Sequence record: SRR16203515_2613
Strand: one strand, 5' to 3'
DNA: 54,506 nt
A program made the position numbers and the translations under genes. Below the pieces are notes generated by a model, which saw only the letters and a list, made by a program, of their open reading frames with translations, did not search any database and was not told the origin of the DNA. Position 1 is the first letter of the stretch, and each line of letters starts with the position of its first letter. Positions 19,071 to 39,395 of this stretch are shown in pieces.

Positions 19071-19093
19071 ACCTGCCAATTTAGTTGCAATTA

Positions 19094-19131
19094 AAAAGGG
19101 TTCGCACGTTGCTGTGCGAACCCTTTTGTTT
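19094..19131 (+). terminator. Intrinsic terminator/stabiliser between SBP and permease
   Basis: AAAAGGGTTCGCAC-gttgct-GTGCGAACCCTTTT, 14-bp arms, followed by GTTT. Confidence 0.85.
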
Positions 19132-19167
19132 GATCACCTCTTCTTTCAGGATTTTGGATAAATAAAA

Positions 19168-20133
19168 ATGATTTGGCGTGCGCTACTTGCTCGTTTAGGT
19201 ATCAGCCTTGTAACGCTGTGGGTGGTTTCTGTACTCATTTTTATCGGGACTAATTTATTGCCGGGGGATATTGCCCAAATCATTCTCGGCCAGATGGCAA
19301 CGCCGGAAAACACCGCAGTTCTGCGTGAAAAACTGGGACTCGATAAGCATCCTCTCGAGCAGTATCTTGTTTGGTTATCCAATGTGGCAATGGGAGATCT
19401 TGGTATCTCGAAAGCGGGATTGGGTGCTGGTCTCGGTACACCGATCGTTGAGATGCTTGGCCCGCGCATTGATAACACCGCGATGTTGACAGTATTAGTG
19501 GGCGCCATTGCGATACCGATCTCGGTAGCACTTGGATTACTGGCTGCGATGCATCCAGGTACCAAATTGGACCGAACCATCACCTTTTCAACTTTAAATA
19601 TTATTTCGATCCCTGATTTTTTAATCGCTACTATTCTGGTGCTGGTGTTTGCAGTCTCTCTGGGCTGGCTGCCCTCGATCGTTTATTTGCGAGGTGATGA
19701 GAGCGGTTGGGTGTTGATGAAAACGATTGCAATGCCGCTTATGACCCTCGTCATTTTGTGCTCTTCCCAGATTATTCGAATGACGCGAGCCACGGTGTTG
19801 AATGTGATGAGTTCGCCTTACGTCGAGATGGCGATTTTAAAAGGCATTCCACGTCGCCGGATTATTCTTCGCCACGCTCTTTTTAATGCGATTGGGCCGA
19901 TCGTTAATGTGATTGCCCTTAACCTTGCTTGGTTGGTGGGAGGTGTTGTGGTGGTCGAACAGATTTTTTCCTACCCGGGTCTCGCCAAATTAATGATCGA
20001 GGCCGTACAGATGCGGGATATGCCGCTCGTTCAGGCCTGTGCCATGATCTTTTGTGCAGTTTATGTTGTGTTGATATTTATCGCGGACATGGCGACGATT
20101 CTGTCAAACCCCCGTTTACGTCATCCCAAATAA
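19168..20133 (+). CDS. ABC transporter permease (DppB-like)
   Basis: LPGD, LGLD.HPLEQY, GDLG.S, EAA-like YVEMAILKG, VVEQIFSYPG, RDMPLVQ, NPRLR. Confidence 0.92.
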   Translation: MIWRALLARLGISLVTLWVVSVLIFIGTNLLPGDIAQIILGQMATPENTAVLREKLGLDKHPLEQYLVWLSNVAMGDLGISKAGLGAGLGTPIVEMLGPRIDNTAMLTVLVGAIAIPISVALGLLAAMHPGTKLDRTITFSTLNIISIPDFLIATILVLVFAVSLGWLPSIVYLRGDESGWVLMKTIAMPLMTLVILCSSQIIRMTRATVLNVMSSPYVEMAILKGIPRRRIILRHALFNAIGPIVNVIALNLAWLVGGVVVVEQIFSYPGLAKLMIEAVQMRDMPLVQACAMIFCAVYVVLIFIADMATILSNPRLRHPK

Positions 20134-20138
20134 AAATC

Positions 20139-21080
20139 ATGTCTGATCAAGCAAACAACACTGACCAATCGTTCAGCTTTGACGAATTGCCCGATGCGCC
20201 GCCAAAGCGCAAGATCAAGTTAAGTTGGCCGGGCAAGATTGGTATTGCGATTGTGCTCTTTTGGTCCGTGATAGTTGTCATTGGGCCGACGATCTCGCCT
20301 TATCATGAGGCTGATATTCTGGATGAAGATCTTTTTATTGTGCCCGGCAGTGATGAGATGTATCCGGATACCGAATTTCAACCACCGAGCAAAATCGTAT
20401 ATCTCGGCAGCGACTATATTGGTCGAGACCTGTTATCTCGTATTCTGTATGGCGCCCGGACCACAATCGGCATCTCGGTGCTCGCGACATTATTGGCTTA
20501 TTTGATTGGCGTGACGGCCGGCATTGCGGCATCGGTTGGGAGTAGTTATCTGGATATGGGATTGAGCCGTGTTAATGATGCGCTGTTGTCGATACCCTCG
20601 ATCATGTTTGCACTGGTGCTTATCGCGGCGTTAAACAGTCCGGGTATTTTCTGGTTGATTTTGATTACCGGTTTTATTTACGCGGCGAGCGTGTTTCGAA
20701 TCGCGCGCTCACTCGGGCAGGAAGTGATGGTGAGCGATTTTGTTGAAGCTGCCAAGGTCCGCGGTGAAGGACTATGGTGGATTATTACGCGTGAGATTCT
20801 GCCGAATATCGCCATGCCGCTGGCAACCGATTTTGGCTTGCGATTTGTCTGGGTCATATTGTTTATTTCGTCGTTGAGCTTCCTTGGGCTGGGCGTACAA
20901 CCCCCGATGTCGGATTGGGGCAGCATGGTCAAGGAGAATCTCCCGGGATTGGTTCTGGGTTCTTATGCGCCGCTCATGCCGGCTTTCGCGATTGCGAGTT
21001 TGACGATCTCGGTCAATATGATTGTGGATGATCTCTCTGCTGCAACAGGCGGCAAACTGGCAAAGAGAATGATCTCATGA
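20139..21080 (+). CDS. ABC transporter permease (DppC-like)
   Basis: LGSDYIGRDLLSRILYGAR, FVEAAKVRGE, SFLGLGVQPP.SDWG. Start placed at ATG 20139. Confidence 0.9.
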   Translation: MSDQANNTDQSFSFDELPDAPPKRKIKLSWPGKIGIAIVLFWSVIVVIGPTISPYHEADILDEDLFIVPGSDEMYPDTEFQPPSKIVYLGSDYIGRDLLSRILYGARTTIGISVLATLLAYLIGVTAGIAASVGSSYLDMGLSRVNDALLSIPSIMFALVLIAALNSPGIFWLILITGFIYAASVFRIARSLGQEVMVSDFVEAAKVRGEGLWWIITREILPNIAMPLATDFGLRFVWVILFISSLSFLGLGVQPPMSDWGSMVKENLPGLVLGSYAPLMPAFAIASLTISVNMIVDDLSAATGGKLAKRMIS

Positions 21081-22891
21081 GCGCGCTTCTTGAAGTAGAT
21101 AACTTACAAATTAGCGCGCGCAATGACGACGACGAGTTAACGCCTATTGTCAAAGGCGTCAGTTTTAATGTACAGCCTGGAGAGGTTGTGGCTTTAATTG
21201 GTGAGTCGGGTTCAGGCAAAACAACAATTGCACTTTCATCCCTGGGCTATACCAAGCCAGGGCTGGAATTTGTGGGGGGCGAGGTTAGACTCCACGGCGA
21301 AGACGTAATCTCAATGCAGAATGACCGATTGCGCGGACTACGGGGTCAACGCGTTGCTTATCTTGCGCAGAGTGCAGCAGCTACCTTTAATCCGGCGTTA
21401 ACTATTGGTGAGCAGGTGACCGAGTCAACCGTTTTGCACGGCCTGATGTCTCAAGAAGAGGCAAATCGCCGCGCTGAAGATCTGTATCGAGCCTTGGAGT
21501 TGCCAGACCCTGATCGGCTTGGAAAGCGATACCCTCATCAGGTATCAGGTGGTCAGTTACAGCGCTTGATGGCAGCAACCGCCCTTTGCGGAAAACCCGA
21601 TCTTTTGGTTCTTGACGAGCCCACAACGGCTTTGGATGTCACAACGCAAATTGAGGTTCTAAAGTCTTTTAAGTCAGTCATCCAGCAGGAAGGGGCATCC
21701 GCTATCTATGTGACACACGATCTCTCAGTGGTCGCGCAGATTGCTGATCATATCGTTGTGTTGTACGCGGGAGAGATTCAGGAGTATGGCACGGCCGACC
21801 AAGTCGTGACCCAACCGAGCCACGAATACACGCGACGATTGATGTATGCGGTTCGACCGCCGCCGGCCGCGGGCCAGGGCGATGAGACTTCTGATGAACA
21901 TCAGCGCAAAGCGCCCGCACTTGAGGTGAAAAATCTGCTTGCCGGTTACGGTAGAACCCAAAACGGCGCTCCTGAAATTACCGTGCTGCGCGATGTAAAT
22001 GTTGCGATTGAACGCGGACACAGCGTCGGTGTGATCGGTGAATCAGGCTGCGGTAAATCGACGCTGGCCCGGGTGATGGCTGGATTGCTGCCTGCGGCTC
22101 AGGGGGAAGTGCTGTTGGATGGCGCAGCATTGCAGCCTGCCTTGCAACAACGAAGTCGAAATGAGTTACAAAAAATACAGTTTGTATTCCAGATGGCGGA
22201 TACAGCGCTTAACCCGCGTCAGCGAATCGATAAGATACTGGGCCGCCCCGTTGAGTTTTATCACGGACTGAAGGGTGAAGAGAAACGCCGACGGGTCGGC
22301 GAGCTTTTACAGATGGTGGAACTGCCTCAGGAGTTTGCGGGAAGATACCCGGAAGAACTTTCGGGTGGACAAAAGCAGCGTATTAATCTCGCGCGTGCTT
22401 TAGCAGCGTCTCCTGAGGTGTTGCTTTGCGATGAGGTGATTTCGGCGTTGGATTCAATTGTGGGCGCAAATGTCATTGAGTTGTTAAAAAGACTACGCAA
22501 GCAGACCGGTGTCTCCTTCGTGTTTATCAGCCACGATCTTTCAACAGTCGCATCATTTGCTGATCAGATCGTGGTGTTGTATGCGGGTCGAGTGGTGGAG
22601 CAAGGACCAACCAACGCCGTGCTCTCGCCACCTTATCATCCCTATACCCGTCTTTTGATTAGTTCTGTTCCTGAGTTGCGGGTTGGCTGGTTAGAAGAAA
22701 CAATGGAGACCCAGGAGGCCCAGGCAGGTATTGATCGGGTGGTCACGCTTACCGATAAAGGGTGCCCATTTTTTGATCGTTGTCCGCGCGCAATGAAGGG
22801 AACTTGCGACGAAGAAACGCCGCCTGTGCGTAATGTGACCGGGAGCCATTCAATCGAATGTCATCTCAGTGAGGCTGAGTTCGCGCAGTAG
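21077..22891 (+). CDS. ABC transporter ATP-binding protein with two fused NBDs (DppD/F-like)
   Basis: Two Walker A motifs (GESGSGKT, GESGCGKS), two SGGQ signatures, C-terminal CPFFDRC...C oligopeptide-type tail. Confidence 0.93.
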   Translation: MSALLEVDNLQISARNDDDELTPIVKGVSFNVQPGEVVALIGESGSGKTTIALSSLGYTKPGLEFVGGEVRLHGEDVISMQNDRLRGLRGQRVAYLAQSAAATFNPALTIGEQVTESTVLHGLMSQEEANRRAEDLYRALELPDPDRLGKRYPHQVSGGQLQRLMAATALCGKPDLLVLDEPTTALDVTTQIEVLKSFKSVIQQEGASAIYVTHDLSVVAQIADHIVVLYAGEIQEYGTADQVVTQPSHEYTRRLMYAVRPPPAAGQGDETSDEHQRKAPALEVKNLLAGYGRTQNGAPEITVLRDVNVAIERGHSVGVIGESGCGKSTLARVMAGLLPAAQGEVLLDGAALQPALQQRSRNELQKIQFVFQMADTALNPRQRIDKILGRPVEFYHGLKGEEKRRRVGELLQMVELPQEFAGRYPEELSGGQKQRINLARALAASPEVLLCDEVISALDSIVGANVIELLKRLRKQTGVSFVFISHDLSTVASFADQIVVLYAGRVVEQGPTNAVLSPPYHPYTRLLISSVPELRVGWLEETMETQEAQAGIDRVVTLTDKGCPFFDRCPRAMKGTCDEETPPVRNVTGSHSIECHLSEAEFAQ

Positions 22892-25584: not shown

Positions 25585-26418
25585 TCAAGAGAGACCTTTG
25601 GGCTTGTGCTCAGAGTCCGCATATAGGGTTTGCGTAATCGCTTCGAGCGAGCGTTTTTGATGTGCGATATTTTCTAACGGATCCTGTGACACCGGACCGT
25701 GTTCAAGATCAAAGTGGCCAAAATGATCCTCCCCTCGGACCAGAATAGCAGTATCACGGGGACCTTCCTTGATTGCGTGAGTGGGTAGATAATCCATCAG
25801 CAGACCTATTCTGCGATCGTCAGATTGATTCAGTCCGGAGCTGTGAATAATGCCGTGGTTAATTACCGTGACTTCACCCGGGGCAAGTTCAATATCTAAA
25901 GCGGTTGAGTCGTCGAATGGCTCATCAATAAACTGGGCGCGCGATAAGATGCTTTTGGAATCATGCCCCTCCTGATGTGAGAGTAATGCCCATTTGTGTG
26001 AGCCGGGAATCACGCGAAGACATCCGCTATCGCGGGTCGCGGCACTCAATGCGAGCCAACAGATTGCCAGGAAGGGTTTCAATTTAATGTAGGCCGTATC
26101 CTGATGCCAAGCTGCATGCTGACCTGTATTCGACTCTTTGATTCGGAATGTGGAATTCCAGTGGAGTAGATTAGGGCCGAGAAGATCTTCCATCAGGTTC
26201 AGGAGGCGCTCATTTCTAGACAGGCGATCAACAGCAGGCAAAATCAGATTAGCTTTGAAATCAAGTTGTCCGGCCAGTTCAGGATGACGGGCTTCAAAGT
26301 CTTCAACTTGCGCTCGAAGCGAAATTGCCTCATCGGTGGCCAAGATTCGAACGGGCGGCAAGAAGCCAAACTCGTCAAAATGTTCAATCTGACTCTGGTT
26401 AAGAAGCAAAGTCTTCAT
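25585..26418 (-). CDS. Phytanoyl-CoA dioxygenase (PhyH) family Fe/2OG oxygenase
   Basis: WHQD, GCLRVIPGSH, IHSS..N.SDDRRIG; paralog of 1747-2577. Confidence 0.9.
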   Translation of the reverse strand: MKTLLLNQSQIEHFDEFGFLPPVRILATDEAISLRAQVEDFEARHPELAGQLDFKANLILPAVDRLSRNERLLNLMEDLLGPNLLHWNSTFRIKESNTGQHAAWHQDTAYIKLKPFLAICWLALSAATRDSGCLRVIPGSHKWALLSHQEGHDSKSILSRAQFIDEPFDDSTALDIELAPGEVTVINHGIIHSSGLNQSDDRRIGLLMDYLPTHAIKEGPRDTAILVRGEDHFGHFDLEHGPVSQDPLENIAHQKRSLEAITQTLYADSEHKPKGLS

Positions 26419-26605: not shown

Positions 26606-27706
26606 ATGTATCAACTGACTCCTTCCATTCGCTTGAGGCGAACGCCTTTTTCAAATCGGGTTGAGCAGGCGGGCGCAACGGCCTTCACGATTTACAACCA
26701 TATGCGACTCGCCTCATTTTATGAGTCACCCGAAGCGGACTATCGACATTTAAAAAACGCAGTACAAGTATGGGATGTCTCCGTTGAACGCCAGGTGGAG
26801 GTCATAGGACCTGATGCATTGCGTCTGGTGCAGATGACGACGCCTCGGGATATGTCCAGAATGCAGGATGATCAGTGCTACTACATCCCGATGGTGGATA
26901 CCGACGGCAAGTTAATGAATGATCCGGTTGCGATACGCCTGAATCAAGATCGTTATTGGCTATCGTTGGCAGATTCGGACATGCTTCTTTACTGTAAAGG
27001 CCTGGCGGCCGCTGGAAAACTTGATGTCGAAGTTTTTGAGCCTGACGTGTCGCCGCTGGCTATTCAGGGGCCCAAAGCCGACGAACTGGTTGCTCGTGTA
27101 TTTGGCGAGGATGTCGTGAAAACGCGGTTTTTTAGACATACAACGATTAACTTCGAAGGCCAGGATATGATTCTGGCGAGATCGGGATGGTCCCATCAGG
27201 GGGGTTTTGAGCTTTATCTTGATGGAAGTGAGTACGGCGAGGCGGTTTGGGACGCGTTATTTGCCGCTGGTGAAGATCTTGATGTTCGGGCCGGGTGCCC
27301 CAACTTAATCGAGCGAATTGAAGCTGGATTGCTTTCATTTGGCAGTGATGTCACTTACGCCCATACGCCATTTGAGGCGGGGCTCACTAAGTATTGCAAT
27401 CTCGACACCGTTAAGGGGTTTCTTGGACGTGATGCCTTGATGAAGTTGAGGGATCCTGTGAGGCAGATTCGGGCATTATCGGTGGATGGTGATCCAGTAC
27501 CGCCGATCAATCATCCCTGGCCACTGCTCGATACATCAGGTTCAGTTGTGGGACATATCTCGTCTTCAACCTGGTCTCCGGATTTTGAGACTAATGTCAC
27601 CATCGCAATGGTAAACCGAACGCATTGGGATCATGACACAAAATTAACCGCCAAAATTCCTGATAGCGAACGCACGGCGACTGTACGATCAGGATTTTGG
27701 ATCTAA
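26606..27706 (+). CDS. dmdA: Dimethylsulfoniopropionate demethylase
   Basis: RLRRTPFS, YNHM, HLK.AVQVWDV..ERQV, PRDMSRMQDDQCYY, NDPVA, EPDVSPLAIQGP, RSGWS.QGGFE, VRAGCPNLIERIE.GLLS: the motif series I recall for Roseobacter/SAR11 DmdA. Confidence 0.88.
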   Translation: MYQLTPSIRLRRTPFSNRVEQAGATAFTIYNHMRLASFYESPEADYRHLKNAVQVWDVSVERQVEVIGPDALRLVQMTTPRDMSRMQDDQCYYIPMVDTDGKLMNDPVAIRLNQDRYWLSLADSDMLLYCKGLAAAGKLDVEVFEPDVSPLAIQGPKADELVARVFGEDVVKTRFFRHTTINFEGQDMILARSGWSHQGGFELYLDGSEYGEAVWDALFAAGEDLDVRAGCPNLIERIEAGLLSFGSDVTYAHTPFEAGLTKYCNLDTVKGFLGRDALMKLRDPVRQIRALSVDGDPVPPINHPWPLLDTSGSVVGHISSSTWSPDFETNVTIAMVNRTHWDHDTKLTAKIPDSERTATVRSGFWI

Positions 27707-27730
27707 GGCATTTGAGAAATATTAAACGTT

Positions 27731-28861
27731 ATGGGATTACATAAAGAACTAGACGGTTTGCTTGTGGTCTCGATGGATCAAGCAGTGGCGGCACCCTATT
27801 GTGCATTGATGCTGGCAGATGCCGGCGCTCGCGTAATAAAAGTTGAACGCAAAGAAGGGGACTTCGCGAGAGGATATGACAAGGGCGCTGACGGCAAGAG
27901 CGTTTTTTTCTCTTGGCTCAATCGCGGCAAGGAATCAATCTGTGTCGATATTAAAGACGCTAACGACGAACAGTTGCTACGTTCGATGTTAAGCCGTGCC
28001 GACGTATTTCTGCACAACCTTGCACCCGGTGCATTAGTCAGGCGAGGGTTTGGTGGAGACGTTTTGCGTGAGACGAACCCTGGTCTTATTACCTGTGAGA
28101 TTAACGGCTACGGCACGACCGGGGATTGGGCGCGAAAAAAAGCCTATGACGCCTTAGTGCAGGCGGAAAGCGGTATTTTTTCTGTTAACGGAACCCATGA
28201 GCATCCCTCTCGAGTCGGGATTTCAATTTGTGACATCTCGTCTGGGCAGACGGCTTTTTCTACGATTCTTCGTGCGCTAATACAACGAGGTGTTACAGGA
28301 GTTGGAATTGATATTTCAATATCAATGTTCGATGTGATGGCGGACTACATGAATTTTCCGTTGCTGTCACACCGCTATCTGGGTCAGGCGCCCGGACGAA
28401 TGGGCATTACCCATCCCCTAATTGCACCATATGGGGCTTACCCGGCTAAAGGCGGCCAGCAAGTGATGATTTCGATTCAAAGTGATCGAGAGTGGCAGCA
28501 TTTTTGCGCTCTGGTATTGAATCAGCCTGAGCTTGGTAAAGATTCACGCTTTGCAGACAATACACATCGCGTAAAGAATCGCAATGAAATGGATAAAGCG
28601 ATCAATTCAACTTTCAGCGTCCACGATATTGATGAGCTGATTAGCATTCTTGATCAAGCGAAGATTGCAAACAGTCGACTCAGTAGTGTTTCTGATCTTT
28701 CAGATCATGAGTTGATTCGAAACGTAGTAGCTGATTTCGATGGCACTGAAGTCAGTATGGCAGATCTCCCTGTTGAGACTGATGCCGATCGGCCTAGAGT
28801 GGTCCCCACTTTGGATCAACATGGGCCAGCAATTAGATCCGAATTTTCCCCAGAGCATTAG
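27731..28861 (+). CDS. CaiB/BaiF family (class III) CoA-transferase
   Basis: QAVAAPYC..LADAGARVIKVER..GDFARGYD, WLNRGKES, KAYD..VQAESG, IAPYG. Confidence 0.9.
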   Translation: MGLHKELDGLLVVSMDQAVAAPYCALMLADAGARVIKVERKEGDFARGYDKGADGKSVFFSWLNRGKESICVDIKDANDEQLLRSMLSRADVFLHNLAPGALVRRGFGGDVLRETNPGLITCEINGYGTTGDWARKKAYDALVQAESGIFSVNGTHEHPSRVGISICDISSGQTAFSTILRALIQRGVTGVGIDISISMFDVMADYMNFPLLSHRYLGQAPGRMGITHPLIAPYGAYPAKGGQQVMISIQSDREWQHFCALVLNQPELGKDSRFADNTHRVKNRNEMDKAINSTFSVHDIDELISILDQAKIANSRLSSVSDLSDHELIRNVVADFDGTEVSMADLPVETDADRPRVVPTLDQHGPAIRSEFSPEH

Positions 28862-28870
28862 AAATCGAAT

Positions 28871-30043
28871 ATGAGTATAAAACCGCCTACCTATAGCCTT
28901 GATCACCCCGAGATAAGAGAGAGCGTTTCACGTCTTTGTGCTGATTTTCCCGGAGAATACTGGCGGCGATGTGACCGAGAACAGGCTTACCCCAGTGAGT
29001 TCGTGCAAGCACTGACAGCTGCCGGTTTTCTGAGCGCTTTGATCCCCGAGCAATACGAGGGTTCAGGGTTGCCGCTTTCAGCAGGCGCCGCGATTTTGGA
29101 AGAAATCCACCGTTCGGGGGGCAACGCGGGTGCTTGTCATGCGCAGATGTATACGATGGGCACCTTGCTGCGTCACGGCTCTGAGACCCAAAAAGAAACT
29201 TATCTGCCAGCAATCGCCCGGGGAGAGCTTCGACTTCAGGCTTTTGGGGTGACAGAGCCTACCAGTGGTACCGATACATCGTCATTAAGAACAACAGCGC
29301 GTCTGGACGGCGATCATTTTGTTGTCAATGGCCAAAAAATCTGGACGTCACGATCTGAGTATTCAGATTTAATGATTCTGTTGTGTCGGACTACGCCTCA
29401 AGATAAAAGTCAGAAGAAGACGGATGGGCTTTCTGTGCTACTGGTCGATATGCGCGAGGCAAGGGATAAGACGCTGACGATCCGCCCGATTCGCACAATG
29501 ATGAATCATGCGACGACCGAGATCTTTTTTGATGATATGCGGGTGCCAGCCCATCATCTGATTGGTGAAGAAGGAAAAGGTTTTAGATACATTCTCTCCG
29601 GCATGAATGCTGAGCGGATTCTGATCGCAGCGGAATGTATTGGCGATGCAAAGTGGTTTATTGAGAAAGCAACAGCGTATGCGGCTGAACGTTCAGTTTT
29701 TGGTCGGCCGATTGGCCAGAATCAGGGCGTTCAGTTTCCGATCGCGCGAGCATATGCCCAGATGCGGGCGGCGGAGCTCGTTCTGCGTGAAGCGATACAA
29801 CTCTATGATGCAGGTGAGAATCCGGGCGAAGAGGCGAACTTGGCCAAAATGCTCGCAGCCGAAGCATCCTGGGCGGCAGCGGAGATGTGTGTCCAGACTC
29901 ACGGCGGATTTGGTTTTGCAGAGGAGTATGACGTTGAGCGAAAATTCCGCGAAACACGACTTTATCAAGTGGCCCCAATCTCTACGAATCTGATCCTAAG
30001 CTACGTTGGCGAGCATGTGCTGGGTTTGCCACGGTCGTACTAA
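28871..30043 (+). CDS. Acyl-CoA dehydrogenase family protein
   Basis: FGVTEPTSGTD, NGQKIW, FGRPIGQNQGVQF, QTHGGFGFAEEYDVERKFRE. Confidence 0.92.
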   Translation: MSIKPPTYSLDHPEIRESVSRLCADFPGEYWRRCDREQAYPSEFVQALTAAGFLSALIPEQYEGSGLPLSAGAAILEEIHRSGGNAGACHAQMYTMGTLLRHGSETQKETYLPAIARGELRLQAFGVTEPTSGTDTSSLRTTARLDGDHFVVNGQKIWTSRSEYSDLMILLCRTTPQDKSQKKTDGLSVLLVDMREARDKTLTIRPIRTMMNHATTEIFFDDMRVPAHHLIGEEGKGFRYILSGMNAERILIAAECIGDAKWFIEKATAYAAERSVFGRPIGQNQGVQFPIARAYAQMRAAELVLREAIQLYDAGENPGEEANLAKMLAAEASWAAAEMCVQTHGGFGFAEEYDVERKFRETRLYQVAPISTNLILSYVGEHVLGLPRSY

Positions 30044-30061
30044 CTGTAATAAGAACTAAGC

Positions 30062-30928
30062 ATGACAGAAGAATACAACCAGAGTGCGCAGTCTCGCCGA
30101 AGTTTTATTTTTGCTCCCGGGTTGAGGCCAGAGTTGTATCCAAAGGCCTTGGCGAGCGGTGCTGATATTGTGTGTGTGGAACTCGAAGACGGGATCGCAC
30201 CGCATGATAAGGATGAAGCGCGGGAAAAGACCCTGGCGCTTTTTGCTGAACCGCAGGCCAATGACGGAGTCGAGCGGATTGTTCGTATTAATTGTCTGCG
30301 GTCAGTTGTCGGGCTGGACGATGTTAAGGCAATTCTTGCGACAGAAACGCCGCCGCCGGCATTGATGCTACCGAAGGTGGTTTCTCCGGATGAAGTGGTT
30401 TGGCTTGATGATCTGCTTACTGAGCGTGGTCACGATACCCGTCTGCATATCATCATTGAGATGAATGCCGGTCTCGAAGCCGTTTTTGACATTGCCCGAT
30501 CGAGTTCTCGTATCGATGCGCTGTTCTTTGGTGGAGTGGATATGGCGGCAGATCTGAGATGCAAGAATGCTTGGGAGCCGTTGCTCTATGCGCGATCCCG
30601 GGTTGTGCATGCCGCCGCCAGTGTCGGCGTGGATGCCGTGGATGTGCCTTATTTGGATCTTGAAGATTTGGAGGGCATGAAGATCCAGGCTCGCCAGGCC
30701 AGAGATCTCGGTTTTAGCGGTAAGGGAGCCATTCATCCTAAACAGATTGCTGATCTTAATGAGGTGTTCACGCCCTCGGCAGAGGAGGTCGCCCGGGCTC
30801 GTAAAGTCGTTACTGCTTTTGAGGAGGCCAACACCGGACTCGTAGTCGTGGATGGAAAGCTAATTGAAAAGCCGGTGGTCCGGGAGATGCAGCGAATTCT
30901 CTCCGTGGCGGATCGTGCCGGGGTCTAG
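30062..30928 (+). CDS. CitE/HpcH-HpaI family CoA-ester lyase (citramalyl/malyl-CoA lyase-like)
   Basis: RRS.IFAPG, SGADIVCVELEDG, VRIN, GGVDMAADL, GKGAIHPKQ, VDGKLIEKP. Confidence 0.88.
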   Translation: MTEEYNQSAQSRRSFIFAPGLRPELYPKALASGADIVCVELEDGIAPHDKDEAREKTLALFAEPQANDGVERIVRINCLRSVVGLDDVKAILATETPPPALMLPKVVSPDEVVWLDDLLTERGHDTRLHIIIEMNAGLEAVFDIARSSSRIDALFFGGVDMAADLRCKNAWEPLLYARSRVVHAAASVGVDAVDVPYLDLEDLEGMKIQARQARDLGFSGKGAIHPKQIADLNEVFTPSAEEVARARKVVTAFEEANTGLVVVDGKLIEKPVVREMQRILSVADRAGV

Positions 30929-30946: not shown

Positions 30947-31891
30947 TTAACTGAAACACGCGTTGAGCGCGTCAGCGCCATCACGCAGTGCTTCGGTGGC
31001 CTGATTGAGCATACGGCTGTAATGGATAAAACTATGCAGCACCCCCGGATAGATTTTCAAAGTCGCTGGCCGACCCTCTCTTTCCATGGCCTTGTAAAGC
31101 GCTATCGAATCATCCTGTAGCGGGTCGCATTCGGCCGCTGCGATGAAGGCGCGTGGTAGTAAGCCGATGCCTCCTTTTAAAACATTGAATCGAGGATCAT
31201 TTCTGTCGTGGGCGTCGCCCAGGTAACTCGTCAGGTAGAACTCTTTTTCCTCGCGGGTAAATTCGAACTCCGCGTTGCCGTACTGCTGCCAGGATGCTGA
31301 CTCGGTTAGGCCGTACGCGCCGTAGTAAAGGAGCAGGAACTGAATCAGTCCAGGACTTTGCTGGTGACAGAGTTGGGTGACCGAAACCGCCAGGTTTGCA
31401 CCAGCAGAATCTCCCCCAATTCCCAGCTGGGTGCTATCAAGTCCGTGATCTGGACCGTGAGCCTGTAACCAGTCGAGCACGGCTCGCACTTCATTGATCG
31501 CCACTGGAAACTTGTATTCGGGTGAGAGTGCATAGTCGACGCCAACAACCCGAGCGCCAGAGAAGTCAGCCAGCAGCCGCATCACCCGGTCATGGGTTTC
31601 AAGATTCCCGAGGATCCAGCCGCCACCATGAAGGTATAAAAGAGTGGGTCCCTGATCTAGATCACTTGGCTTGTAAACACGTATCGGTATATCCCGTACC
31701 GGTCCCGCAACGTGTGTGTTTATTACATCATGCATCTCAGGCTTGAGTTCGTTCCACCAGGCGCGCTCGGCGTTATACGCATCTCGAACTCCGTTGAGAG
31801 TGAGGTCTGCTACGTCACTCGCCCCGTCAGTTAGCGTCGCGCGTTTTTTCATGACCGCGATCATCTGGGGATCCAGTGTCACGTGGGTCAA
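30947..31891 (-). CDS. Alpha/beta hydrolase, HSL/Aes acetyl esterase family
   Basis: HGGGW oxyanion motif, GDSAG nucleophile, DPL, GVLHSF. TTG start overlaps the GcvT-family stop. Confidence 0.88.
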   Translation of the reverse strand: MTHVTLDPQMIAVMKKRATLTDGASDVADLTLNGVRDAYNAERAWWNELKPEMHDVINTHVAGPVRDIPIRVYKPSDLDQGPTLLYLHGGGWILGNLETHDRVMRLLADFSGARVVGVDYALSPEYKFPVAINEVRAVLDWLQAHGPDHGLDSTQLGIGGDSAGANLAVSVTQLCHQQSPGLIQFLLLYYGAYGLTESASWQQYGNAEFEFTREEKEFYLTSYLGDAHDRNDPRFNVLKGGIGLLPRAFIAAAECDPLQDDSIALYKAMEREGRPATLKIYPGVLHSFIHYSRMLNQATEALRDGADALNACFS

Positions 31892-34381: not shown

Positions 34382-35257
34382 TCAGACGGAAAAAGAATTC
34401 CATTGCTGGTCAAACCGCTCCAGGTTTTCACGGGTGTAGTCTACAAAGTCGAAATCGAGTTGGGAGTGAATTTCGGACACCATGCTCCAAAGTGTTTCTC
34501 TCAGTAATGACGCACACTTCATCGCCTCAAATCCATGTCGAGTTTGATCAGAAATGGGACCGTTAAAGTAGCGTTGTAGGAGCCAATCCTCCTGATTTCG
34601 GGTGAGACCATTATTCGATGCCAGATTGGCGAGATCAAAAAGTGGACTGTTGTAGCCAGCGTAGTCCCAGTCAATGAGCCAGAGCCGGTTGCCATCGTCG
34701 ATAAAGTTAGCAGCCAGAAGGTCATTATGTCCGTAGACGATATCAACCGATCCGACGGCCGCCTCAAGAACCGCACCTTTTTCCTGTAGCGCGGGTAGCA
34801 TGTCGCTCAAGCGACTCCCATCATTTCGGAGTGTCCCTAGGTAATCGCGGATGACGTGAAAGACCCAGAAGATAAGAGCCGGACCCCGCATCTGTTGGGC
34901 CAGTTCCCGATGACAGGTGTGCAGCATCGGTAAGATTCGCTCAAGATATACATCCTGCCTGATTTCTGCCTCAGTGAGGGTCTTGCCTTCGATGAAATTA
35001 AGGATCAGCACTCCTGGCGCGTGGTATGCCACGTCGGGGGAAAGACCGACTTTGGCTGCTGCGATACTGGCCTCAAGCTCGTTAAATCGCATAACGCCGT
35101 GGAGCGGAATATCGTTACCCATGCGGACAAAGAATTTTTGACCTTGGTTGGTTACAACGAAATTCTGGTTGGTGATGCCGCCCTCGATGGGTTCAAGCGT
35201 GATACCCCCTTTCCAGAAGTCCAGTTCCCGTATTTGTTGTTCAAGTGTTTTACGCAT
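34382..35257 (-). CDS. Choline/ethanolamine kinase family phosphotransferase
   Basis: GGITNQN, Brenner motif HNDLLAAN, LIDWDYAG...PLFDLA. Confidence 0.9.
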   Translation of the reverse strand: MRKTLEQQIRELDFWKGGITLEPIEGGITNQNFVVTNQGQKFFVRMGNDIPLHGVMRFNELEASIAAAKVGLSPDVAYHAPGVLILNFIEGKTLTEAEIRQDVYLERILPMLHTCHRELAQQMRGPALIFWVFHVIRDYLGTLRNDGSRLSDMLPALQEKGAVLEAAVGSVDIVYGHNDLLAANFIDDGNRLWLIDWDYAGYNSPLFDLANLASNNGLTRNQEDWLLQRYFNGPISDQTRHGFEAMKCASLLRETLWSMVSEIHSQLDFDFVDYTRENLERFDQQWNSFSV

Positions 35258-35277
35258 AGCAAGGATTCACGGTTGTT

Positions 35278-37281
35278 TTAAGACTGAAGCCCAAACTCCA
35301 TTCTCTTTCTTTGTGCCCACCGATTGATCAGGCGGTCAGCCACGATGGCAATACAGGCAACGCCGATGCCGGCAATAATGCCCCGACCTGTATCTGCTTT
35401 GGTCAGGGCGATATAGACCTCTTGTCCAAGGTCCCGGGTTCCCACCAATGCCGTGATCACCAGCATGGAAAGCGCCATCATGATTGTCTGGTTTATTCCG
35501 AGCATGATCTGAGGCAAAGCAATGGGAAGTTCGATGCGCCATCGGATTTGAGTCCGGGTACAGCCGATTGCTCGCGCCGCTTCAATCAGATGCGTGGGAA
35601 CTTGCTCAATTCCGAGGATGGTATAGCGGATAGCAGGTGCAAGAGAGTAGGCAATCACAGCCAGCATCGCTGCAAAATCGCCAACCCGAAACAACATGAC
35701 GACCGGTATCAGGTAGACGAACGACGGCAGGGTTTGTAGCGTGTCAATAAGGGCTTGAGTTACGCGGTTTAGTTTTGAGTGGGAAGCGGCTAGGATGCCT
35801 GCCGGAATACCGATACAAGCCGCAAACAGAACCGAAACGCCGCAAAGATAGACCGTGATCATGGCTTTCGTCCATAGCCCGGTCACCGCTATGAATAAAC
35901 TGAGCACGGTGGTCAGCGCGGCTAGCCGTAACCCCCCTAGCCGAAAACTGACCAAAGCAATCAGTGCGACCACAACGCTCCACGGAGTGTTCAGCAGGAA
36001 GCGTTTGACCGGGATCATGATGTGAATCAACACGAAGGTTTTAACGGCTTCAAGTTGATCGAAAAAATTAATGTTGATCCACTTAACTGCTGCATCCCAG
36101 AAATGACTTGTTGTGACCTGAAGTGACTCTGGAAAAATAGCGAGCGCCGGGAAAAAATGAGCGGCTAGCCAGGAGACAATAAGAATCAGAATGATCAGCG
36201 CGCCAAAACGGGGGCCCGTTAGGAATTCGGAACTGTCCGCCCGTGCGGATTTTGTCGAGCGACTGTTGTATGCCTGTCCTAATCGGTCCAAGGCGATGGC
36301 GAGTAGCGTTATCGCAAGACCGGCTTCAAGGCCATCACCGATCGCGAGCCTGCGAAGAGAGCTGAGGACATCAAAACCAAGGCCTCCTGCGCCGATCATT
36401 GACGCGATGATCACCATGTTCAATGAAAGCATGATGACCTGATTGATGCCGACCATGAGGGAATTTCGTGCAACAGGAACTTGAATTTTGCGGAGCAGTT
36501 GCCGTCGGCTGCAGCCAGCCATGTCACCGTACTCAATCAATTCTTCGGGTATCTGGCGGAGCGACAGGATCGTTACTCTAACCATTGGAGGTGTTGCGTA
36601 GATCATCGTGGCAATCATTGCCGCAACCGGTCCAAAGCCGAAAAGAAATAGAACCGGTACCAGATATGCAAATACAGGGACCGTTTGCATAAGATCAAGT
36701 ACCGGGGAGAGCATGCGCTCCAGAAGGGGGTGGCGGTAGGCGGTGATACCGAGCGCAAAACCTATTCCTACACCTAGCGGAACAGCAATAATGATTGAAC
36801 TCAAAGTCACCATGGCGCTTTGCCACTGACCAAAAATAACAAGGTAGAAAAAGCAGCCCGTGACAAGGAGGGTCAGGCGAATTCCGGAAAGCTGGAATGC
36901 GAGCAGACCGACAATGCTTACAATGGCAATCCAGGGTGCCGGCGGTAGGATAATAGGCGCCCCCGGTTCGGTCGAGAAAGTAAAACCGGTGGCAAGGAAG
37001 CTGTTGGCAATCGATAACGGCCACTCGAGCACCCATGCTATTGAGCGAGTAAGCTCCTTAAAGGTAAAAAGACCAAGGTCAAAATCTTTGATCAGCCATT
37101 GCATAAGATCGCTGATCCAGAATCTAAGCGGAATGATCCAGTCTTTAGGGTACTTCACTAAAAAGGGCGTGAGTTCCTTGTTTAGATATAACAGAATGCC
37201 GAGACAAAAAATGACGGTTAACGAAAGCCAGAGCCCCCAGCGGAATTTGACGGGAGCCTCGGGAATCGGGATTGATTGCAT
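35278..37281 (-). CDS. ABC transporter permease, ProW-like with two fused TM domains
   Basis: Two QT.P.F.YL.P motifs, each followed by GINQ.IM..LSM. Confidence 0.92.
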   Translation of the reverse strand: MQSIPIPEAPVKFRWGLWLSLTVIFCLGILLYLNKELTPFLVKYPKDWIIPLRFWISDLMQWLIKDFDLGLFTFKELTRSIAWVLEWPLSIANSFLATGFTFSTEPGAPIILPPAPWIAIVSIVGLLAFQLSGIRLTLLVTGCFFYLVIFGQWQSAMVTLSSIIIAVPLGVGIGFALGITAYRHPLLERMLSPVLDLMQTVPVFAYLVPVLFLFGFGPVAAMIATMIYATPPMVRVTILSLRQIPEELIEYGDMAGCSRRQLLRKIQVPVARNSLMVGINQVIMLSLNMVIIASMIGAGGLGFDVLSSLRRLAIGDGLEAGLAITLLAIALDRLGQAYNSRSTKSARADSSEFLTGPRFGALIILILIVSWLAAHFFPALAIFPESLQVTTSHFWDAAVKWININFFDQLEAVKTFVLIHIMIPVKRFLLNTPWSVVVALIALVSFRLGGLRLAALTTVLSLFIAVTGLWTKAMITVYLCGVSVLFAACIGIPAGILAASHSKLNRVTQALIDTLQTLPSFVYLIPVVMLFRVGDFAAMLAVIAYSLAPAIRYTILGIEQVPTHLIEAARAIGCTRTQIRWRIELPIALPQIMLGINQTIMMALSMLVITALVGTRDLGQEVYIALTKADTGRGIIAGIGVACIAIVADRLINRWAQRKRMEFGLQS

Positions 37282-37283
37282 TG

Positions 37284-38330
37284 TCAGTACGAGCCGGCAG
37301 GCTCTCTGCCTACGAGCACATTCAGAACAGATTGTCGGTCAATCACTCCAATAACCGATCCGGTGTCGTTAATCACACCGATCGGGTCTTCAGAATGGAC
37401 TGCCTGATCTGCAAATTCCTGAACTTTAGCGTCGTGTCTTTGCAACTCCCGAAGCGTGTCTTTCTCGTTTGATGCCAGAGGTCTCATGACCATCCGGGCT
37501 GAGAAGACTTTTGCGCGGGAAACATCCCGCGTAAATTCAGCGACATACTCTGTCGCGGGGTTGATAATGAGGTCTTCAGGTGTCCCGATCTGAATGACAG
37601 CCCCATCCTTCATGATTGCGATCCTGTCAGCTAATCGGATAGCTTCATCAAAATCATGGGTGATAAATACGATTGTTTTTTTCAGAATGTCCTGCAACTT
37701 TAGAAACTCGTCCTGCATTTCCCGCCGGATGAGCGGATCCAACGCTGAAAATGGCTCGTCAAGAAACCAAATATCAGGCTCCACTGCCAGTGATCGCGCA
37801 ATACCGACACGCTGTTGCTGGCCGCCTGACAGTTCACGGGGATAGTAATCCTCCCGTCCAGACAAACCGACCAGAGAAATCATTTCGCGAGCTCTTTGTT
37901 CCCGGGTTTTCTTATCGATACCTTGAATCTCGAGGGGAAAGGCGACGTTTCCAAGGACTGACATATGGGGTAAGAGCGCAAAATGTTGAAATACCATACC
38001 CATCTTATGTCTACGAATCTGGATAAGTTCATCCTCGGAAGCCGAGAGAAGGTTCTGACCGGCGAACATGATCTCTCCAGCAGTGGGTTCGATCAGGCGA
38101 CTCATGCATCGGACTAGCGTTGATTTCCCGGAACCGGATAGCCCCATGATGACGAAAATCTCTCCATTGAAAATATCGAGCGTGACGTCACGAACGGCTG
38201 GAATCAGGCCAGCATCGTTTAATTCAGTGAGCGAAGGTGACCTGGAAGTTTTTTCCAGTAAGTGGGAAGCATCATCGCCAAAAATCTTCCAGATGTTTCG
38301 GAGTTGTAGCGCTGGTTTTACTTTCGACAT
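37284..38330 (-). CDS. Glycine betaine/proline-type ABC ATP-binding protein (ProV-like)
   Basis: GLSGSGKS, LSGGQQQRVG, DEPFSALDPLIR, CBS-like tail. Start placed at ATG 38330 because the track TTG at 38372 lies in the terminator tail. Confidence 0.9.
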   Translation of the reverse strand: MSKVKPALQLRNIWKIFGDDASHLLEKTSRSPSLTELNDAGLIPAVRDVTLDIFNGEIFVIMGLSGSGKSTLVRCMSRLIEPTAGEIMFAGQNLLSASEDELIQIRRHKMGMVFQHFALLPHMSVLGNVAFPLEIQGIDKKTREQRAREMISLVGLSGREDYYPRELSGGQQQRVGIARSLAVEPDIWFLDEPFSALDPLIRREMQDEFLKLQDILKKTIVFITHDFDEAIRLADRIAIMKDGAVIQIGTPEDLIINPATEYVAEFTRDVSRAKVFSARMVMRPLASNEKDTLRELQRHDAKVQEFADQAVHSEDPIGVINDTGSVIGVIDRQSVLNVLVGREPAGSY

Positions 38331-38378
38331 TCCGATTGCTGTACTTTGGTGATTTGTAAGATTGATAGACAAACAACA

Positions 38379-38409
38379 TAGCAGGTGGCTCGCGAAGAAC
38401 CACCTGCTA
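38379..38409 (-). terminator. Stem-loop after the SBP gene
   Basis: TAGCAGGTGG/CCACCTGCTA arms; followed by TGTTGTTTGT on the minus strand. Confidence 0.75.
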
Positions 38410-38441
38410 CTTTTTGGAGCCCGAACTGGAAGTGAGGGCCT

Positions 38442-39395
38442 TTAGTTACACTGGGTCCACGGCTCCCAAGTTGCCTTATTGGCATCCAGCCATGCCGAAA
38501 CGACGTCCGCTATTTTTTTGCCTTCAAGGTCTACCTCAACGATCATCTGGCCAATCGTGGGGTTATCGATTTCAAAGTTACGAACCGCTTGATACGCGCA
38601 GGGCCATTTGGCTTCGCCTCCTTTCCAGCCGACTTTTTTGATCCAGCCCCTGGGTTTCCCGCAGTCATAGGCCATGTTGGTGTTTAAGCCAACACTCGGA
38701 TCTTCATAGCAGGCGTCACTGTAGGGTGGAAACTCGATAAATTCCCCTTCGAATTTCACCGTCGACCAATGAGGATGATAGACCCAGCCGATCCAAGGGG
38801 CTTTACGCTGGTAAGCTGATTCCAGCTCGGCCCAGAGTGCCGCATCCGTGCCGGCGTGGACGACTTCGAAGTCGAGTCCGAGCGCTTCAACTCGTTCTTC
38901 GTCGAAGCCCGCCCAGGTGACAGGTCCGCCCAGGTATCTTCCGGCCGGCGCGGTCTCCGGTGTTGAAAACGCTTCCGCGCATTCGTTCAATGCTTTCCAG
39001 TCAGGGAGACCTGGACATTTTTCTTTCATATACATGGGGTACCACCATTCCTCGATGGCGTTCATTCCTGTCTCACCGAGATCAACTGTTCCCCCAGTGC
39101 CCAGGCTGGCTTCCATGGCCTGCTTGCCCGTGGTTTCCCACATCTCCATCGCAATATGCAGGTCGCCGGACTCCAGTCCTGCGAACTGTGCGATGTAGTC
39201 GGCTTGTTGATATTTGACGTTATAGCCCATGTTTTCCAGGATTCGACCCATCAGCTCGGTGTTGATCAGCTGACCCGTCCAGTCGTGAAGCGTAAGGATA
39301 ATGGGATCTTTCGACTCGACTGCCATGGCAGCGTTTGAGAACAGTGCGCTTGCGAGGAGCGCAACAAAAAGTCTTTTTATCTTGCTAAAAAGCAT
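38442..39395 (-). CDS. Betaine/TMAO-type ABC substrate-binding protein (TmoX-related clade)
   Basis: Signal peptide; HDWTGQ, EEWWYP.YMKEKCPGLPDWKALNECA, GPVTW, YDCG; GGGAGG RBS. Confidence 0.88.
   Translation of the reverse strand: MLFSKIKRLFVALLASALFSNAAMAVESKDPIILTLHDWTGQLINTELMGRILENMGYNVKYQQADYIAQFAGLESGDLHIAMEMWETTGKQAMEASLGTGGTVDLGETGMNAIEEWWYPMYMKEKCPGLPDWKALNECAEAFSTPETAPAGRYLGGPVTWAGFDEERVEALGLDFEVVHAGTDAALWAELESAYQRKAPWIGWVYHPHWSTVKFEGEFIEFPPYSDACYEDPSVGLNTNMAYDCGKPRGWIKKVGWKGGEAKWPCAYQAVRNFEIDNPTIGQMIVEVDLEGKKIADVVSAWLDANKATWEPWTQCN

Follow-up and report, generated by a model that had tools for sequence, protein, structure and literature searches.

A probable methylsuccinate-type CoA-transferase and acyl-CoA dehydrogenase pair between dmdA and a CitE-like gene in one genus of the order Arenicellales

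Sequence record SRR16203515_2613, a stretch of 54,506 nucleotides called the window in what follows, carries at positions 26606–30928 four closely spaced genes headed by dmdA, which encodes the demethylase of dimethylsulfoniopropionate (DMSP). All four lie on the plus strand. The "type 1" DmdA of the GcvT family (26606–27706, 366 aa, model NF009133) is followed by an Ict-like class III (CaiB/BaiF) CoA-transferase (27731–28861, 376 aa, PF02515), a short acyl-CoA dehydrogenase (ACAD) of the Mcd type (28871–30043, 390 aa, three ACAD Pfam domains) and a CitE-like protein (30062–30928, 288 aa, PF03328), hereafter gene 4, which belongs to a clade with Glu in the catalytic lid and may be a lyase or a thioesterase. 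The gaps of 24, 9 and 18 nt between these same-strand genes, reported in an initial annotation made from the letters alone, agree with the coordinates, and the families named there agree with the Pfam and NCBIfam profile scores. The observation that the block has no dmdB-, dmdC- or dmdD-type gene also held: the second gene encodes a CoA_transf_3 protein and no AMP-forming acyl-CoA ligase of the DmdB type is found in the block, nor is a crotonase-fold hydratase of the DmdD/AcuH type, and a Pfam profile search of the four genes found no hydratase. The arrangement is not mere chance, as it recurs in a whole genus and in metagenomes.

The first gene is, judged by its sequence, a genuine DmdA. It scores 534.4 bits against the NCBIfam equivalog NF009133 (DMSP demethylase; cut-off 410), contains the Pfam domains GCV_T and GCV_T_C, and matches PDB entries 3tfh/3tfi/3tfj over residues 3–353 with 342.7 bits; these entries are titled as a GcvT-like aminomethyltransferase, and we take them to be Pelagibacter DmdA. 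None of genes 2–4 reaches an NCBIfam equivalog cut-off. The CoA-transferase has 317.6 bits to PF02515 (CoA_transf_3), its top NCBIfam model is oxalate CoA-transferase, whose cut-off of 522 it misses with 222 bits, the succinate-glutarate and the succinyl-CoA:mesaconate models coming next, and its top solved relative is YfdE (193 bits). The ACAD has no PF12806 match and no long C-terminal domain. Its top NCBIfam model is AcrC, and an identity as acryloyl-CoA reductase was rejected on that score (226 bits against 640), as was 3-sulfinopropionyl-CoA desulfinase (186 bits against 600). Near its C-terminus the window ACAD has no Glu at the "YEG" position, presumably that of MCAD-type enzymes, and carries a Glu in a "NAER" motif on the helix in which we take isovaleryl-CoA dehydrogenase to have its catalytic base.

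Gene 4 is assigned to the CitE-like superfamily by its match to PF03328 (HpcH_HpaI/CitE-like, 129.5 bits). Its top-scoring family is RipC/Ccl, the (S)-citramalyl-CoA lyase of Yersinia type, and its top solved relative is PDB 3qll (200 bits), which we take to be Y. pestis RipC. Unlike RipC/Ccl, gene 4 stays under the family cut-off (RipC_Ccl NF038242, 267.8 bits against 375), has Glu in place of the lid Asp of 3qll, and has no RipA/RipB-type neighbours. Residues were read from alignments to 3qll, 5ugr, 5vxc and 4l9y, with the site list taken from the available text of PMC3832036. The Glu-Asp pair E42/D43, R75 and the Mg ligands E133 and D160 are kept, as aligned with malyl-CoA lyase (MCL), and Glu269 aligns with the lid Asp of all four structures. 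According to the available text of the same source, the catalytic Asp of the lid hairpin (Asp299 in R. sphaeroides MCL) is a constant feature of the superfamily, and only the cluster of the R. sphaeroides malyl-CoA thioesterase departs from it, with Glu (Zarzycki and Kerfeld, 2013; PMC3832036). The lid Glu is present in 99 of 99 gene 4 orthologues of at least 60% identity; five of six more distant homologues have Asp, the sixth (Azospirillum, 56%) has Glu, and the Ccl-type lyases of itaconate clusters have Asp.

In a maximum-likelihood tree, the gene 4 clade is separate (support 100/99), standing apart from Mcl1-like proteins, from Ccl-type lyases and from lid-Glu proteins encoded in three genomes of Rhodobacterales and Hoeflea. 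The latter were taken as Mcl2-like solely by their lid Glu, and gene 4 is about 31–32% identical to them. Because of this separate position and low identity, the lid Glu of gene 4 probably arose independently. Like the (3S)-malyl-CoA thioesterase Mcl2 of R. sphaeroides, gene 4 has about 290 residues, the Mg ligands and Arg, and the lid Glu; unlike the Mcl2 cluster, it falls in its own clade, and its thioesterase activity is putative. From this one residue gene 4 may be a thioesterase, and the label "CoA-ester lyase" given in the initial annotation stands as regards the CitE-like family, while the name itself may be wrong. A role as substitute malate synthase was rejected, as malate synthase G and isocitrate lyase are both present in the nearest genomes.

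These nearest genomes are G001 (2.7 Mb, one contig), whose ACAD is 99% identical to that of the window, and its congener G002, in which all four genes are intact at 99% identity. In G001 (C1:496778–501038, L009) each of the two dmdA copies is broken into two frames, and the alignments of the CitE-like and BHMT-like genes are incomplete. The window and G002 have intact versions of all these genes, and the breaks are probably due to assembly indels rather than to pseudogenes. Open reading frames in this and the other fetched loci were called with a GC3-weighted caller. The second DmdA paralogue of G001, 37–50% identical to the window DmdA, lies at L112:4583–5720 (G001 2274622–2275717) in a minus-strand run with a thiamine pyrophosphate (TPP) enzyme resembling acetolactate synthase or 2-hydroxyacyl-CoA lyase, an LldD-like gene and a short-chain dehydrogenase/reductase (SDR).

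The reach of the linkage to dmdA was followed by searching 121 genomes of the order Arenicellales with DmdA, the ACAD and gene 4. Type 1 DmdA is encoded in 15 of the 16 genomes of the window's genus, and in 12 of these 15 the ACAD lies about 1.2 kb 3' of dmdA on the same contig, the other three being fragmented or incomplete. The spacer between dmdA and the CoA-transferase gene is about 20–25 nt in the closest relatives of the window and about 140–190 nt in other congeners, so that the 24-nt spacing is not general across the genus. Among the 121 genomes, the CoA-transferase/ACAD pair stands between dmdA and gene 4 in the window's genus only.

Outside the genus, five genomes encode type 1 DmdA (65–69% identical). 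Four of these, G048, G060, G115 and G026, represent four genera and two families and differ in the genes flanking the locus; in each, a gene 4 orthologue (73–77%) lies directly 3' of dmdA and the ACAD is on another contig. The ACAD of the three that belong to the window's own family is just 66% identical to that of the window; that of G026, from another family, is 82% identical, and ACADs in other families of the order reach 82–83%. Recurrent linkage to dmdA, on which the initial annotation had made its proposal depend, is therefore borne out for gene 4, whereas the linkage of the CoA-transferase and the ACAD is confined to one genus. A search of the literature that left subscription journals mostly outside its scope found no description of dmdA beside a CitE-like, CoA-transferase or short ACAD gene, and the pairing of dmdA with a CitE-like gene is new.

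One way to explain this pairing is that the real functional unit consists of dmdA and the CitE-like gene, with the CoA-transferase/ACAD pair between them as an unrelated insertion. Gene 4 would then hydrolyse or cleave a malyl-CoA-like intermediate, either the hydrate of methylthioacryloyl-CoA or 3-oxopropionyl-CoA, and so perform the second half of the DmdD reaction, the DmdB- and DmdC-like enzymes being encoded elsewhere. The direct adjacency in the four genomes argues for this, as does the order in G026 (L123:2138–6375; a genome listed with 6% contamination), where a PaaK-like CoA ligase, a crotonase, dmdA and the CitE-like gene stand in a row. The lid Glu, reported in the available text of PMC3832036 only for the malyl-CoA thioesterase cluster, would suit a hydrolytic step. 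Also in favour, dmdA shares a transcript with a helper gene, acuI, in Roseobacters, according to the available text of Todd and others (Todd et al., 2012; PMC3338564). Like that arrangement, the window has a same-strand gene after dmdA that encodes a CoA-ester enzyme outside the demethylation steps; unlike it, where the partner is an acryloyl-CoA reductase of the medium-chain dehydrogenase/reductase (MDR) family, the window also has a CoA-transferase and an ACAD, neither of which belongs to the dmdA-acuI arrangement as described there (PMC3338564).

The metagenomes extend this picture. A scan with gene 4 as query led to 80 fetched loci, of which 28 have all four genes in order, and at 14 gene 4 comes right after dmdA. 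Eight further loci show the ACAD with gene 4 on contigs that are too short upstream, 16 loci have less than 1.2 kb upstream, and 13 have no GcvT-family gene directly upstream; among the 52 loci without the four-gene order, 24 are thus too short upstream to tell. The remaining locus has the order aminotransferase-ACAD-gene 4 (L177:3424–6610): a PRK08153-type aminotransferase gene precedes the ACAD (82%) and the CitE-like gene (80%), and neither dmdA nor a CoA-transferase gene is on that contig.

The contexts of gene 4 without dmdA tell against a dedicated partnership. Other genera of the order provided eleven further orthologue loci (70–75% identical), and at seven of them the gene directly upstream of gene 4 encodes a different GcvT-family protein of 393–401 aa. 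These proteins are 77–93% identical to one another and about 28% to DmdA, and the top model of their clade is the C-terminal domain of trimethylamine N-oxide (TMAO) demethylase (184 bits). The gaps between the two genes run from -4 to 230 nt, and the pairs are followed by a tripartite ATP-independent periplasmic (TRAP) transporter and an amidase, or by a glutathione S-transferase (GST). They lie in L128–L136 (G062, G072, G107, G059, G099, G053, G119), for example at L129:6894–8944, and such a locus resembles a catabolic operon for an imported acid. In G092, gene 4 is divergent from a CoA-transferase-aldehyde dehydrogenase-ACAD run, with no dmdA.

Gene 4 orthologues also occur in 34 of 401 sampled alphaproteobacterial genomes. 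A GcvT-family gene lies within 1.5 kb of gene 4 in none of the 30 alphaproteobacterial loci returned, and the neighbours are diverse. On a Tistrella plasmid, a 64% relative of gene 4 adjoins a cupin gene. Such unrelated contexts, together with the 13 metagenome loci mentioned above, weigh against a unit of dmdA and the CitE-like gene, and so does G014, the fifth of the genomes outside the genus and a congener of G026, in which dmdA is present but a search of the genome at E<=1e-50 gave no CitE-like gene. In G014 (L124) a ligase-crotonase pair was seen about 6 kb from dmdA. Moreover, going by the available text of PMC3832036, the Mg/Arg site of the family would bind a C3 hydroxyl and a carboxylate, and the esters derived from methylmercaptopropionate (MMPA), the product of DmdA, would have no such carboxylate. 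A functional unit of dmdA and gene 4 is thus regarded as unlikely, though it is an alternative to be taken seriously.

The CoA-transferase/ACAD pair has a quite different distribution. A scan of a genome collection with the window ACAD as query gave 80 loci at 72–99% identity, or 72–88% for those of other bacteria, from Alpha- and Gammaproteobacteria, including Bradyrhizobium, Bosea, Mesorhizobium-like Hyphomicrobiales, Rhodobacteraceae, SAR116 and sphingomonads, among others. A homologue of the CoA-transferase lies within 2.5 kb of the ACAD gene in 58 of the 80 loci (45–66% identical outside the genus), while dmdA and the window-type CitE gene accompany it in only three, all Arenicellales-like. 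The recurrent neighbours elsewhere are a 284-aa double hot-dog hydratase, a TPP enzyme, a LysR regulator and MmgE/PrpD, and further crotonases, an aldehyde dehydrogenase, P450s and MetE-like proteins.

Annotated records show such contexts in detail. On plasmid pMESCI01 of Mesorhizobium ciceri the order is LysR-ACAD (79%)-oxidoreductase-CaiB-MaoC-CoA ester lyase-MmgE/PrpD, and on pDOK1-1-2 of Phaeobacter inhibens it is LysR-MaoC-ACAD (65%)-CaiB-CoA ester lyase-TRAP transporter. A cluster in Ralstonia combines the ACAD (65%) with a lyase and a CoA-transferase, Palleronia has fumarase-CaiB-ACAD (79%)-MmgE/PrpD, P. terrae has crotonase-CoA-transferase-ACAD (68%)-MmgE/PrpD-EtfBA-HMG-CoA lyase, and in C. 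metallidurans the ACAD (66%) is followed by PrpD and a hot-dog hydratase. In these loci we recognise the five-gene "pseudomonadal" itaconate/methylsuccinate cluster or variants of it. The likeness to the corresponding Pseudomonas cluster, pointed out in the initial annotation, turned out to be stronger than claimed there, and by identity and synteny the window ACAD can be called orthologous to the ACADs of ich-mcd-(mmgE)-ict-ccl clusters. The CoA-transferase is 45–46% identical to its counterparts in full itaconate-type clusters and 54–66% to marine counterparts that adjoin MmgE/PrpD.

In the available text of Gonner and others, the ACAD of the five-gene cluster is described as an (RS)-methylsuccinyl-C4-CoA dehydrogenase, the MmgE/PrpD protein as a methylsuccinate isomerase, and the CoA-transferase as activating itaconate and methylsuccinate, with Ich and Ccl as the specific enzymes of the itaconate degradation pathway (Ict-Ich-Ccl); P. 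aeruginosa PA0878–PA0883 and C. necator E6A55_22580–22600 are given as examples (Gonner et al., 2025; PMC12290011). The block shares with ich-mcd-mmgE-ict-ccl a class III CoA-transferase, a short ACAD and a protein of the CitE family, all encoded on the same strand, and its ACAD is 65–79% identical to those of complete clusters on the named plasmids. Unlike that cluster, the block has neither an Ich hydratase nor MmgE/PrpD, it is headed by dmdA, and its CitE-like protein is 29–35% identical to Ccl-type lyases and carries Glu for the lid Asp.

Other contexts of the pair were noted as well. In Bradyrhizobium-type loci (L016–L082) its neighbours are two P450 genes together with another ACAD gene and genes for a hot-dog hydratase and a TPP enzyme, and in Pseudolabrys-type loci (L039, L064, L070, L072, L076) it adjoins three to four tandem MetE-like (Meth_synt_2) paralogues, an SDR and a major facilitator superfamily (MFS) transporter. 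The SAR116-type locus L049 has the pair beside a GcvT-like gene. Demethylase-type enzymes recurrently adjoin the CoA-transferase/ACAD pair across unrelated lineages.

The proposal of the initial annotation was an ATP-sparing route for MMPA, in which the CoA-transferase would stand in for DmdB, the short ACAD for DmdC and the CitE-like enzyme for DmdD, by C-C or thioester cleavage. The DMSP demethylation pathway is reportedly due to Reisch et al. 2011 in its original form. The accepted sequence of enzymes is DmdA-DmdB-DmdC-DmdD/AcuH, in the available text of PMC13360808. On paper the block resembles it: DmdA comes first and passes a curated model, and CoA activation is followed by dehydrogenation. 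It is unlike the pathway in having a CoA-transferase for the AMP-forming ligase, no crotonase, and an ACAD of 390 aa without the PF12806 domain where DmdC has about 590 aa. The tight spacing of the four genes in the window speaks for such a route, as do the exact insertion of the pair between dmdA and a gene that otherwise adjoins dmdA, the lack of an equivalog-level DmdB in five genomes of the order, and the stronger divergence of the CoA-transferase (45–66%) compared with the ACAD, which would be compatible with a shift in the acid that it accepts.

The ACAD itself argues otherwise. It is 65–82% identical to ACADs of dicarboxylate clusters from soil bacteria that have no dmdA at the locus. 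In a comparison of 38 dmdA-linked ACADs with 85 orthologues from other contexts, over columns at least 90% conserved in the latter, no group-specific substitution was found outside residues 1–5, a short N-terminal extension, and so nothing suggests a changed substrate. Genes for MmgE/PrpD and TRAP dicarboxylate transporters beside the orthologues point to 1,4-dicarboxylates, in line with the available text of PMC12290011. With no hydratase in the operon, and with the linkage of the pair to dmdA restricted to a single genus, the ATP-sparing MMPA route is considered improbable.

The genes found elsewhere in the nearest genome bear on both of these alternatives. G001 has two long ACADs with PF12806 outside the block, one of which, of 594 aa, scores 612 bits to PDB 6ijc and sits in a ligase-thiolase-FadB-ACAD operon; we take 6ijc to be DmdC. 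This operon was observed about 10 kb from the second DmdA paralogue. The top ligase of G001 has 440 bits to the DmdB equivalog NF005426, whose cut-off is 822, and 344 bits to 6ihk/6ijb, presumably DmdB structures, against 633 bits to acyl-ACP synthetase. G001 therefore has predicted DmdB- and DmdC-like candidates, a complete dmdBCD not being proven by these scores: the genome holds a DmdC-type ACAD, while the ligase stays under the DmdB cut-off, and it was a complete set that the initial annotation had regarded as damaging to its proposal. The same two candidates would supply the enzymes needed if dmdA and gene 4 were a functional unit.

The DmdB-like ligase type (424–480 bits) occurs in G001 and G002 and in three genomes without the insertion. 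Its loss in genomes with the insertion was tried as an explanation and rejected, the ligase being retained, and since no genome reaches the cut-off this test says little. As the ligase is kept with and without the insertion, nothing appears to have been replaced, which counts against the CoA-transferase having taken over from DmdB. A cultured UBA868 isolate is stated to encode DmdABCD in the available text of a preprint (bioRxiv 10.64898/2026.04.01.715867). The most far-reaching claim would be that, in this abundant marine gammaproteobacterial order, the Glu-lid CitE-like enzyme is the obligate partner of DmdA and provides a DmdD-independent ending to MMPA-CoA breakdown by hydrolysis or cleavage of the malyl-CoA-like hydrate of methylthioacryloyl-CoA, and that in one genus the CoA-transferase and the ACAD complete a ligase-free, ATP-sparing operon from DMSP to methanethiol; we regard it as distinctly unlikely, a little less so than the ATP-sparing route as first proposed.

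Hydratases were likewise sought beyond the block. G001 and G002 each have seven crotonases outside it, and the top one is 51% identical to a crotonase that flanks CoA-transferase-ACAD-PrpD in a SAR116-type locus. The expectation that ich be checked in the genome came out negative with the queries used: no Ich-type double hot-dog hydratase was found, the Mesorhizobium cluster hydratase giving no match in G001 and PF01575 matching, in G001 as in G002, just two single-domain proteins of 157 and 171 aa, PF13452 not having been searched. Each of the two genomes has one class I fumarase. Gonner and others report, in the available text, (S)-citramalate as the product of mesaconate hydration by class I fumarases and citramalate as a further substrate of the Pseudomonas CoA-transferase (PMC12290011). 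Given this fumarase, these reported activities and the fumarase cluster of Palleronia, hydration at the level of the free acid is plausible.

The surroundings of the block are those of an osmolyte-catabolism and one-carbon island, with transporters and BHMT-like and DMGDH-like genes. Divergent from dmdA lies a PhyH-family Fe/2-oxoglutarate dioxygenase gene (25585–26418, minus strand; PF05721, 88.8 bits), whose position is conserved in L009, L010 and many metagenome loci; relatives of 31–34% identity stand a few kb from dmdA and the CitE-like gene in L120 and L121. Convergent on gene 4 is an alpha/beta-hydrolase esterase gene (30947–31891, minus strand), kept just 3' of the block in most loci of the genus; its product has 184.8 bits to Abhydrolase_3 and 295.5 bits to the acetyl esterase model, whose cut-off is 389. 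Further flanking genes encode a BHMT-like homocysteine methyltransferase, which like the dioxygenase gene is divergent from dmdA, a DMGDH-like fusion protein and a choline-kinase-like protein, and a ProVW-type betaine ATP-binding cassette (ABC) transporter lies 3' of the block. In the window, positions 17493–22891 upstream hold an Opp/Nik-type ABC transporter with a fused double ATPase, and positions 34382–39395 downstream hold the choline-kinase-like gene (best model GntI kinase, score under the cut-off), a fused double ProW permease, ProV and a binding protein.

Such neighbours allow gene 4 to be seen as part of a methylated-osmolyte/glycine island and not as a companion of dmdA. It would then condense or hydrolyse malyl-CoA derived from glyoxylate, itself arising from the demethylation of betaine-type compounds to glycine, with dmdA and the other GcvT-family gene as merely the demethylases of that island. 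The Azospirillum relative (56%) fits, as it ends a soxBDAG-dipeptidase-FAD oxidoreductase operon on a plasmid; so do the betaine-type ABC transporter genes, found beside GcvT-family/CitE-like pairs and in the window, and the DMGDH-like, BHMT-like and choline-kinase-like genes around the block. However, DMSP demethylation gives no glycine, the malate synthase G and isocitrate lyase of the nearest genomes leave no gap for gene 4 to fill, and the evidence in favour is genomic context throughout. This explanation strikes us as more improbable still than an ATP-sparing MMPA route.

Transcript data cover the whole block. Contigs from four metatranscriptome libraries of three studies match all four genes at 95–100% likeness; single contigs X1, X3 and X4 span the CoA-transferase/ACAD junction and X2 spans that of the ACAD and gene 4. 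Contigs of this kind neither prove a single transcript nor exclude DNA carry-over. Promoter and terminator consensus scans of the window block and of L163 gave nothing clearly above shuffled sequences in a useful place.

The reading that we prefer, to which we would give somewhat less than an even chance, is that the block is a methylsuccinate-type CoA module inserted between dmdA and an older CitE-like partner, its genes being co-expressed without forming one pathway. The initial annotation had itself offered a fortuitous fusion of two operons as the alternative to its MMPA route; this comes closest, except that three parts and not two seem to have been joined. In the simplest history, the ancestor of one genus would have received a CoA-transferase/ACAD pair of foreign type between dmdA and gene 4. 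Elsewhere in the order, gene 4 sits directly behind dmdA or another GcvT-family gene.

DmdA would convert DMSP to MMPA and 5-methyltetrahydrofolate. Separately, the CoA-transferase would activate a branched C4/C5 dicarboxylate, for example methylsuccinate, with succinyl-CoA as the probable CoA donor, and the ACAD would oxidise the CoA ester to an enoyl-CoA (mesaconyl-C4-CoA). Hydration would be supplied from elsewhere, by one of the seven crotonases or, after the CoA has been passed back and the free acid released, by the class I fumarase. Gene 4 would finally act on a malyl- or citramalyl-type CoA ester, by cleavage, or by hydrolysis as the lid Glu suggests. The identities of the genes, their orthology as judged by synteny, the taxonomic reach of each linkage and the residue pattern are observed; the substrates, the insertion, a common transcript with dmdA and the part played by gene 4 are inferred from them.

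Several points weigh against an inserted module with co-expression. The direct adjacency of dmdA and gene 4, seen in four genomes and 14 metagenome loci with varied flanks, looks like a functional pair, and the ligase-crotonase-dmdA-CitE-like order of G026 looks like a CoA-dependent route that starts from the DmdA product. The junction between dmdA and the CoA-transferase gene is bridged by none of the RNA contigs listed (at least 31 nt on each side). In the five genomes of the order no ligase reaches the DmdB cut-off of 822. As no Ich was found in the nearest genomes, the dicarboxylate route is incomplete at the locus, and the orthology of the ACAD to the characterised PA0879 and Q0K3E4 rests on synteny and not on direct alignment. 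The score of gene 4 under the RipC/Ccl cut-off and its missing lid Asp make a role as terminal lyase insecure.

A large share of the organic sulfur of the sea reaches methanethiol through DMSP demethylation, and to our knowledge what follows DmdA is poorly defined except in Roseobacters and SAR11. An Arenicellales operon that would have been built by the insertion of a methylsuccinate-type module is a caution against inferring an MMPA pathway from gene order alone. It also leaves a testable puzzle, namely a CitE-like clade with a thioesterase-like lid residue that stands, in several genera, behind dmdA or behind a second folate-dependent gene of the GcvT family. The function of gene 4 could reveal a missing step, or a protective role, tied to the folate-dependent demethylation of osmolytes.

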